DNA of 8,081 nucleotides from the IMG/VR virus record IMGVR_UViG_2713896783_000022; one strand, 5' to 3'. Of this stretch, positions 1,782-2,619 are shown one piece after another (position 1 is the first letter of the stretch; the number at the start of each line of letters is the position of its first letter). Origin of the DNA: a virus (lineage: Duplodnaviria > Heunggongvirae > Uroviricota > Caudoviricetes). A program made the translations under genes and the position numbers. The notes beneath the pieces are model-generated. The model was given only the letters and a program-made list of their open reading frames with translations. It made no database searches and was not told the origin of the DNA.

Positions 1782-1902
1782 TCCTCTGCGCGAGTGTGCG
1801 GGGATAATCAAAAACGATACACACCGGGGTTTACCGCGTTAACGGAGCGCGGCGTTGTCCCCTCATGGTCGCTGGTCCGGTGCGATGGTGGAAGAAGCCG
1901 GA
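1782..1902. repeat. Copy A of a ~120 bp direct repeat (partner at 2499-2619), about 95% identical by eye
   Basis: By-eye alignment of TCCTCTGCGCGAGTGTGCGGGGATAATCAAAAACGATACACACCGGGGTTTACCGCGTTAACGGAGCGCGGCGTTGTCCCCTCATGGTCGC…GGTGCGATGGTGGAAGAA with copy B shows about 5 mismatches in the ~115 bp core before the flanks diverge. Read on the minus strand, copy A has the same short N-terminal-like codons as copy B (PAHSRRG) but hits a stop shortly after, so no gene body follows it. Confidence 0.8.
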
Positions 1903-2063
1903 TGTTTATCACTATTAATTGATAACACAGAAATGGATTCATTGATTTTCAGCACGTTTTTGTATTCGTATTATTGAACATCTGTTTATTTTACTTTTAA
2001 CATATTGATAATAAAAAGAGCTGTAAATCTTTAGATGAGTCGATTTTGTCCGAGGAAGTTCAA

Positions 2064-2204
2064 ATGGATTTTATGCTGACGGTTTCTGGTGTGGTTATCC
2101 TGTCCATTGCTTATACTGCAGATAAATATGGCTGCCATTTGTTATCACGTATTGGCGCTTATTGCTCGTTGATGCTGATTTTCTCGTCGCTTTTTTTTGA
2201 GTAA
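2064..2204 (+). CDS. Small hydrophobic protein, 46 aa, two short hydrophobic segments (candidate membrane peptide); not in the ORF track (below size cutoff)
   Basis: Strong SD GAGGAAG at 2052-2058, 5 nt before ATG 2064. Translation MDFMLTVSGVVILSIAYTADKYGCHLLSRIGAYCSLMLIFSSLFFE. Lies in the AT-rich segment between the two repeat copies. A possible sigma70-like promoter (TTGAAC 1974-1979, 18 bp spacer, TAACAT 1998-2003) is upstream, low confidence. Confidence 0.35.
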   Translation: MDFMLTVSGVVILSIAYTADKYGCHLLSRIGAYCSLMLIFSSLFFE

Positions 2205-2333
2205 GTTATATTAATTATAACAAATAATTTTCTGTGTTTTTTCAGGCTATCCCGTCAGACGGGAAGCCTGTACTGCCGGGGGACGAATGGAAAACTGATG
2301 TGTCCGGTAACTGTGTGTTCTGTGAACACCATG

Positions 2334-2528
2334 TTACTTAATTATGTAATTCATACCCGAACGCTCTGTTGACAGCCTTCTTCTGCAGGCTTCAATAACC
2401 CACGCTGAAAAGTTACCGGAACCTTTATGTTCAAGGGCGATATTNNNNNNNNNNNNNNNNNNNNNNNNNNNNNNNNNNNNNNNNNNNNNNNNNNAGACTC
2501 CTCTGCGAGAGTGTGCGGGGATAATCAA
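2334..2528 (-). CDS. Second, divergent copy of the DUF3950 (YnfO/YlcI-like) small protein; 5' part interrupted by the assembly gap, true start unresolved (the track's start at 2528 is a TTG)
   Basis: The C-terminal part NIALEHKGSGNFSAWVIEACRRRLSTERSGMNYIIK is clearly paralogous to the 2793-3020 gene (NIALDQKGSENFSAWVIESCRREL…). The region upstream of the gap has no in-frame ATG before a stop. The gap length is a placeholder, so the gene may be intact or a pseudogene. Confidence 0.5.
   Translation of the reverse strand: MIIPAHSRRGVXXXXXXXXXXXXXXXXXNIALEHKGSGNFSAWVIEACRRRLSTERSGMNYIIK
2445..2494. other. Assembly gap (50 N)
   Basis: Run of 50 N characters. This is a scaffold placeholder of unknown true length, immediately beside repeat copy B. 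Confidence 0.97.
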
Positions 2529-2619
2529 AAACGATACACACCGGGGTTTACCGCGTAAACGGAGCGCGGCGTTCTCCCCTCATGGTCGCCCGTCCGGTGC
2601 GATGGTGGAAGAAACTGGA
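2499..2619. repeat. Copy B of the ~120 bp direct repeat (partner at 1782-1902); overlaps the 5' end and upstream region of the minus-strand DUF3950 paralog
   Basis: Same by-eye alignment as copy A. The left boundary may extend into the gap. Confidence 0.8.

Follow-up and report, generated by a model that had tools for sequence, protein, structure and literature searches.

The apparent bracketing of an AT-rich cassette by direct repeats is most probably an artefact of scaffolding, to which we assign a probability of about 0.9 from sequence comparisons; the copies of a non-coding block, here called R, from two different prophages would have been set side by side, with the junction between them hidden by an assembly gap. 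The window, by which we mean the whole 8,081-nt stretch of DNA that was analysed, covers the part of a lambdoid prophage from lysis to capsid genes, encoding Ant, Rz/Rz1, small ORFs, an HNH endonuclease, terS, terL and a protease-capsid fusion. Embedded within the Rz gene (992-1459) is a lipoprotein ORF (1212-1418, plus strand) for an Rz1-type o-spanin, the arrangement expected of a two-component spanin. The features discussed below are these:

1483..1707, plus strand: small ORF of 74 aa (orf74), ECs_1536, phrog_2571 (function unknown); the Sp6 left-flank type of R.
1724..1902, plus strand: R copy A, complete at about 179 nt; 100% identical to Sp6 of Sakai (locus L005, 2700-2930).
1903..2333, no strand assigned: AT-rich cassette AT1, which flanks R on the right in prophages of Sp6 type (R5 among the right-flank types, 10 of 113 loci).
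2334..2444, minus strand: 3' part of the Sp6 DUF3950 (YlcI/YnfO) gene, PF13132; the 5' 75 nt are lost in the gap.
2445..2494, no strand: run of 50 Ns, the scaffold join of two contigs; left flank Sp6, right flank Sp10.
2495..2619, plus strand: R copy B, right-hand 125 nt only, cut on the left by the contig start; exact in Sakai Sp10, Sp9 and Sp12.
2630..2696 (ends within about 3 nt), minus strand: hnrS (EcOnc11), assigned from a terminator, a promoter-like site, exact Sakai copies and complementarity to hha.
2793..3020, minus strand: complete DUF3950 paralog of Sp10 type, ECs_1967; PF13132 E-value 3e-17, 62.6 bits.
2992..8081, plus strand: segment with zero mismatches to both Sp6 and Sp10, carrying the DUF3950 5' end, HNH, terS, terL and protease-capsid.

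The two copies of R are clearly related to one another. Where the earlier note described repeats of about 120 bp and about 95% identity, the pair (1778-1902 and 2495-2619) measures 125 nt and agrees at 117 of 125 positions (93.6%), far beyond chance; the repeat thus stands, but its tandem arrangement is not supported, as none of the closed genomes searched has the two copies in tandem. The length of about 125 nt is itself set by the start of the second contig, the homologous unit being the block of about 179 nt at 1724-1902. The similarity of the window to Sp10 and BP-4795 begins at window position 1723, and in Sp10, Sp9 and Sp12 R extends 55 nt further left than in copy B, up to the Rz stop codon. 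Other parts of the same description hold as given: the gap adjoins copy B directly (the Ns occupy 2445-2494 and copy B begins at 2495), the stretch at 1903-2333 is rich in A and T (about 30-41% GC, the repeat having 53-57%), and a small hydrophobic ORF lies within it (2064-2204, plus strand, 46 aa; ECs_1538 in Sakai). This ORF begins at 2046 if a TTG start is used, and it has no match in Pfam or PHROG. At 1900-1920 (plus strand), the last bases of copy A, GGATG, open a six-codon mini-ORF, MFITIN*, and lambda has a comparable one; as there is none in Sp10 or 933W, it is probably not meaningful.

The gene reported between the repeats does belong to the DUF3950 family, but only a 3' fragment of it is present (2337-2444, minus strand; PF13132 E-value 3e-15, 56.2 bits, profile positions 6-29 only). 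The full-length Sp6-type gene, seen at 3935-4120 of locus L001, encodes 61 aa, and the Pfam gathering cut-off for PF13132 is 25 bits. Both minus-strand genes to the right of R copies are members of the YlcI/YnfO (DUF3950, PF13132) group of moron genes; the two paralogs in the window are about 75% identical where they overlap, and each comes from a different prophage. Copy B had also been taken for the 5' end of the DUF3950 paralog together with its upstream sequence, which is wrong, and the error arose from an apparent ORF at 2334..2528 (minus strand) that was read across the 50 Ns. In closed genomes, what lies next to the missing 5' end of the gap-cut gene is the HNH gene, not the repeat, and on the minus strand both repeat copies are downstream (3') of a DUF3950 gene. 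The ORFs at 2334-2528 (minus strand) and 2427-2558 (plus strand), both called through the 50 Ns, are artefacts, and they illustrate that an ORF read across Ns can yield a false gene start.

To either side of the gap, the window corresponds to a different prophage of E. coli O157:H7 Sakai. Positions 1-2444 match prophage Sp6 with 3 mismatches, and positions 2495-8081 match prophage Sp10 at 5587 of 5587 positions (100%). In NC_002695.2 the two loci (Sp6 at 1,559,049 and Sp10 at 1,946,810) lie on the same strand, about 385 kb apart. The window as a whole finds its best match in E. coli O157:H7 genomes, where the matching stretch falls 501 bp short of the window's length. Sp6 matches the right-hand part of the window from 2886 only, with its last mismatch at 2991 and perfect agreement from 2992 onward, and the first contig ends, at 2444, 46 nt short of where Sp6 and Sp10 become identical. 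Sp9, Sp10 and Sp12 are identical to one another for at least 1 kb on each side of the point matching 2495, and the break points at 2444 and 2495 were presumably set by other prophages of the strain. Further along the shared segment, between the HNH gene (3062-3427) and terS, there is a cluster of five exact ATGTTAAC sites on both strands (3521-3642, with 0.17 expected), two of which overlap as a palindrome; this is likely the cos or terminase small-subunit binding region of an HK97-like packaging module.

Under the mis-join reading, the window would be part of a draft scaffold from an O157:H7-like E. coli. The first contig (to 2444) would represent the unique part of Sp6, with Rz, orf74, R, the AT-rich cassette and the 3' part of DUF3950, while the second (from 2495) would begin inside R of a prophage of the Sp10/Sp9/Sp12 type and continue through hnrS and the other DUF3950 paralog into the HNH-terminase-capsid region. 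We infer that the scaffolder linked these contigs via the segment of about 5 kb shared by Sp6 and Sp10, inserting 50 Ns; the identity of Sp6 and Sp10 over 2992-8081 provides the repeat that explains such a link, and, the head of the second contig being of Sp10 type, its first 497 nt or so (2495-2991) would be foreign to the Sp6 locus. The direct repeats would then be paralogous copies, one per prophage, of the conserved non-coding block R of about 179 nt, which in lambdoid phages sits between the lysis module and the variable cassettes ahead of the packaging genes. Mis-scaffolded or collapsed lambdoid prophage repeats are a known feature of short-read O157:H7 assemblies, and the present case has the same ingredients: multi-kb identical late regions (Sp6/Sp9/Sp10/Sp12), contigs that break at repeat borders, and a scaffold join made through a shared segment. 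Nothing specific distinguishes it from ordinary O157:H7 mis-scaffolding, only the look of direct repeats around a cassette being unusual. The case serves as a warning that an N gap beside a repeat in a prophage-rich genome can mimic a cassette bracketed by direct repeats.

We considered the possibility that the strain carries a true tandem, in the order R, AT-rich cassette, DUF3950a, R, hnrS, DUF3950b, arising via unequal or illegitimate recombination between the two prophages. Lambdoid prophages do exchange parts of their genomes where short, diverged blocks of homology let them recombine (PMC3945230), R occurs with many combinations of flanks, and the gap hides the junction, the one stretch of this sequence that could speak directly against contiguity. 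However, the two repeat copies in tandem are absent from all 5,426 complete E. coli genomes and all 50,697 phage records searched. The best cover of window 1400-3100 in these same collections is 81%, over a 1200-bp record stretch that has one R copy and one DUF3950 gene, and the three layouts found among related prophages have one R copy each:

Layout 1, Rz-orf74-R-AT1-DUF3950a-HNH: Sp6 and PPyecE.
Layout 2, Rz-R-hnrS-DUF3950b-HNH: Sp10 and BP-4795.
Layout 3, Rz'-orf-R-hnrS-DUF3950b-HNH: Stx2_EH1846.

Also weighing against a true tandem, each side agrees at 99.9-100% identity with a different prophage of one lineage, the join coincides exactly with the N run, and the gap would have to hold 75 nt of gene, 55 nt of R and a new unassembled junction. 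At a genuine novel junction the sequence would be unique and ought to have assembled without leaving a gap. We consider a true tandem very improbable. Among the explanations put forward in the earlier note, neither a segmental duplication nor a gain of the cassette at this locus finds support, the tandem layout being in no closed genome, and it is the repeat-driven assembly mis-join that is borne out, with the two sides of the gap belonging to two prophages (Sp6 and Sp10) of the same lineage and no closed genome having the tandem. Prophage mosaicism, the remaining suggestion, applies in the wider sense that R is a junction combining different flanking cassettes, but no rearrangement is shown at this locus.

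The boundaries of R were defined by aligning 120 IMG/VR prophage loci, and its ends read TGCGC.GTAT.GTCGCC on the left and GGAAGAAAC.GGA on the right. Outside R the flanks are unrelated between loci, with at least 12 left types and at least 16 right types occurring in many combinations; lying between so many interchangeable flanks, R is a mosaic junction. At megablast sensitivity, R is found at 4,088 sites, spread over 1,577 of the 5,426 complete E. coli genomes (median 2, maximum 9 per genome), and among the matches listed in RefSeq E. coli genomes no annotated feature lies under it. Each prophage or phage locus inspected has a single R. In lambda, the left 100 nt or so of R is found at 46885-46981, upstream of bor and between bor and lambdap78, and in DLP12 R is between borD and ybcV; these two intergenic regions are homologous to the left 100 nt or so of R at 79-80% identity. 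In 933W it separates bor from terS, in phage 21 bor from a TonB-like moron, and in 2G7b bor from ylcI, and in all five of these genomes it is about 133 nt upstream of bor. In Salmonella phage ES18 it is near the right genome end, and in Sp10, which is without bor, it begins 10 nt after the Rz stop codon. Compared with lambda and DLP12, the prophages of the window are without bor and have a longer form of R that includes the central and terminal hairpins discussed below.

R is multi-copy, dispersed, non-coding and sharply bounded, as would be a small mobile element (MITE- or IS-like) inserted twice. Against this explanation, R is without terminal inverted repeats (best 9/25) and without a target-site duplication, its flanks are unrelated, and every locus inspected, in lambdoid phage or prophage, has one copy, always at the same place in the late region (downstream of the lysis genes) and pointing the same way. 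We give the idea of a mobile element almost no credence.

Several observations concern the genes beside R and its occurrence elsewhere. In right-flank types R0, R10, R11 and R12 (for example L058, L074 and L133), AAATGATAACCATTATCATTTT directly follows R; it is closely similar to the Fur-box consensus, GATAATGATAATCATTATC, and this suggests an iron-regulated moron at the R junction in these types. In phage 21 (L176, 1646-2516), small plus-strand genes lie to the right of R, including one for a TonB C-terminal domain protein, and the first annotated ribosome-binding site is in the purine-rich loop (GGAAGAAAC) of the terminal hairpin of R. A scan of species-representative genomes for the core motif of R returned mostly matches like lambda control DNA. 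The lambda-type core was seen in unrelated assemblies (L013-L052), including Pseudomonas, Bacillus-like genera, Flavobacterium and MAGs, with many of the hits falling on contigs about 3.5 kb or about 48.4 kb long; its presence in such unrelated taxa looks like lambda control-DNA contamination of public genomes and not true occurrence, and with this contamination the scan added no diversity for R.

The cassettes next to R differ between the two source prophages, with the small hydrophobic ORF in Sp6 and hnrS in Sp10. By its sequence, what directly follows copy B on the right is hnrS of Sp10, the function in repression being taken from PMC13502914. On the minus strand, this region has a 9-bp GC-rich hairpin, forming a predicted intrinsic terminator (stem at 2661-2637, then T7), and a promoter-like site at 2731-2702 puts the start of hnrS near 2695. 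The 67-nt hnrS sequence is found exactly in Sakai Sp9 (minus strand; L173), Sp10 (minus strand; L006) and Sp12 (plus strand; L174), while a sequence comparison of the Sakai prophages found no hnrS in Sp6. Hfq peaks named EcOnc12 (Sp9, minus strand), EcOnc11 (Sp10, minus strand) and EcOnc10 (Sp12, plus strand) have been reported previously (Tree et al. 2014, Table S2, PMC4104026), and these fall within the hnrS sequence, with agreement of strands, once a uniform offset of about +140 between versions of the record, calibrated on AgvB, is allowed for. EcOnc10/11/12 have recently been renamed HnrS, an Hfq-dependent sRNA of 66 nt described as having an intrinsic terminator and as repressing hha through base-pairing at the hha ribosome-binding site (PMC13502914). 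In the sequence studied here, CUUCUACC in hnrS is complementary to GGUAGAAG, the hha ribosome-binding site just upstream of the start codon. As for the place of hnrS relative to R, it is outside the repeat, and copy A has another cassette behind it. HnrS is a recently described virulence-linked sRNA, and RefSeq shows no gene at the corresponding Sakai loci.

Two other assignments in this region were considered and rejected. The EcOnc11 peak (1946819-1946867) might have been placed inside copy B, but the AgvB calibration and the exact matches in Sp9, Sp10 and Sp12 put it in hnrS. The Pas sRNAs, AgvB and AsxR are not the match here: they belong to the pR' moron site, which lies upstream of the genes for lysis.

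R itself has no conserved open frame: an ORF open on the plus strand of copy A meets a stop in copy B, and the variants differ by indels of 1-2 nt. A protein-coding role is ruled out by these broken frames and by indels that are not multiples of three. A search of the whole window against the covariance models of Rfam 15 (E <= 1) gave nothing in 1700-2700 and one weak match elsewhere in the window, and a tRNA scan of the window found none. Scans for promoter and terminator consensus sequences reported no site in either copy of R, the nearest reported sites being in the flanking cassettes, and none of the EcOnc peaks in Table S2 of PMC4104026 is in R.

R may be a passively conserved leftover upstream of bor, hitch-hiking and homogenised by recombination within it, and having no RNA or protein-binding function. 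We would give this reading not quite an even chance. It is consistent with the place of R about 133 nt upstream of bor in the five genomes named above, with its character as a mosaic junction, and with the result that single-sequence folding of R is no stabler than that of shuffled sequences (z = -0.14 for the plus strand and +1.36 for the minus strand). Homology-driven module exchange is established in lambdoid phages, and exchange in the Rz-cos region of lambda and DLP12 has been shown experimentally (De Paepe et al. 2014, PMC3945230). R resembles the mosaic junctions of lambdoid phages (PMC3945230) in being a short block, 76-100% identical, among 12 left and 16 right flank types. Unlike a mere trace of recombination, however, R is more strongly conserved and more sharply bordered than expected, and it shows base-pair covariation. 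The sharp borders are kept without bor, for instance 10 nt after the Rz stop codon in Sp10, and blocks of at least 40 nt are invariant from lambda to the Stx phages.

The covariation bears on whether R is instead a functional RNA structure. RNAalifold, run on the plus strand, predicts a pair of long-range helices, P1 (GUAUCGU with ACGAURC) and P2 (UAUUCCY with GGGRAUA), together with two small hairpins and a terminal hairpin (UCCGGU with ACCGGA). Among 32 representatives of the E. coli-type R, 96.9% of cells are paired in this plus-strand structure, and in the alignment of E. coli-type and Salmonella-type copies (alignment A6) the figure is 97.0%. Eight pairs in alignment A6 are changed on both sides, against 4.8 +/- 1.2 in shuffles (6 of 500 reach 8), and there are 32 double-change cells against 7.4 expected (reached by 0 of 500 shuffles), the alignment comprising few independent lineages and the structure having been derived from the same sequences. 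A control in which pairing partners were slid gave 0-2 double-change pairs and 30-54% paired, and this difference from the eight pairs and 97% of the actual structure argues against a passive linker. The passive reading gains, on the other hand, from the fact that most of the compensatory changes trace to one E. coli/Salmonella split.

Individual helices show where these changes fall. The terminal hairpin in ES18 has gone from UCCGGU/ACCGGA to CUCGAU/AUCGAG, amounting to three double changes, and in P2 of the same phage a C-G pair has become A-U. In L202, an E. coli-type variant, the same P2 pair has independently changed from C-G to U-A, which is not what a passive linker would suggest, and the central hairpin is kept in every variant of R despite differences in sequence, which likewise counts against the passive reading. 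Two alternative structures were examined and rejected. The pairing of GGGGA with UCCCC, a rival to P2, is broken in ES18, while P2 covaries. A minus-strand structure has fewer paired cells (87.0% as opposed to 96.9%) and a weaker RNAalifold energy (-13.2 kcal/mol as opposed to -27.6 kcal/mol for the plus strand), with the lower pairing on the minus strand being due to 104 cells that are G-U on the plus strand.

On the basis of covariation, R could be a functional RNA whose structure forms on the plus strand, the sense strand of the late operon, a proposal that we make tentatively and with the odds somewhat against it. In its fuller form, the proposal, which we hold just as tentatively, is that R may be an undescribed structured RNA of about 180 nt and five or six helices, lying in the late (pR') transcript where the lysis genes meet the moron-packaging region, in phages from lambda and the Stx phages to ES18. 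Such an RNA could have a role in cis, for instance by influencing how the late message is processed, stabilised or insulated, or as something like a small ribozyme, and could at the same time be the homologous anchor for swapping the bor, hnrS, DUF3950 and TonB-like cassettes.

As a by-product of checking an assembly, R is a candidate structured element that may deserve follow-up. It is widespread, unannotated and sharply bounded in the lambdoid phages, lambda among them, and if the RNA structure proposed here is true, lambda itself would carry an unrecognised RNA element.
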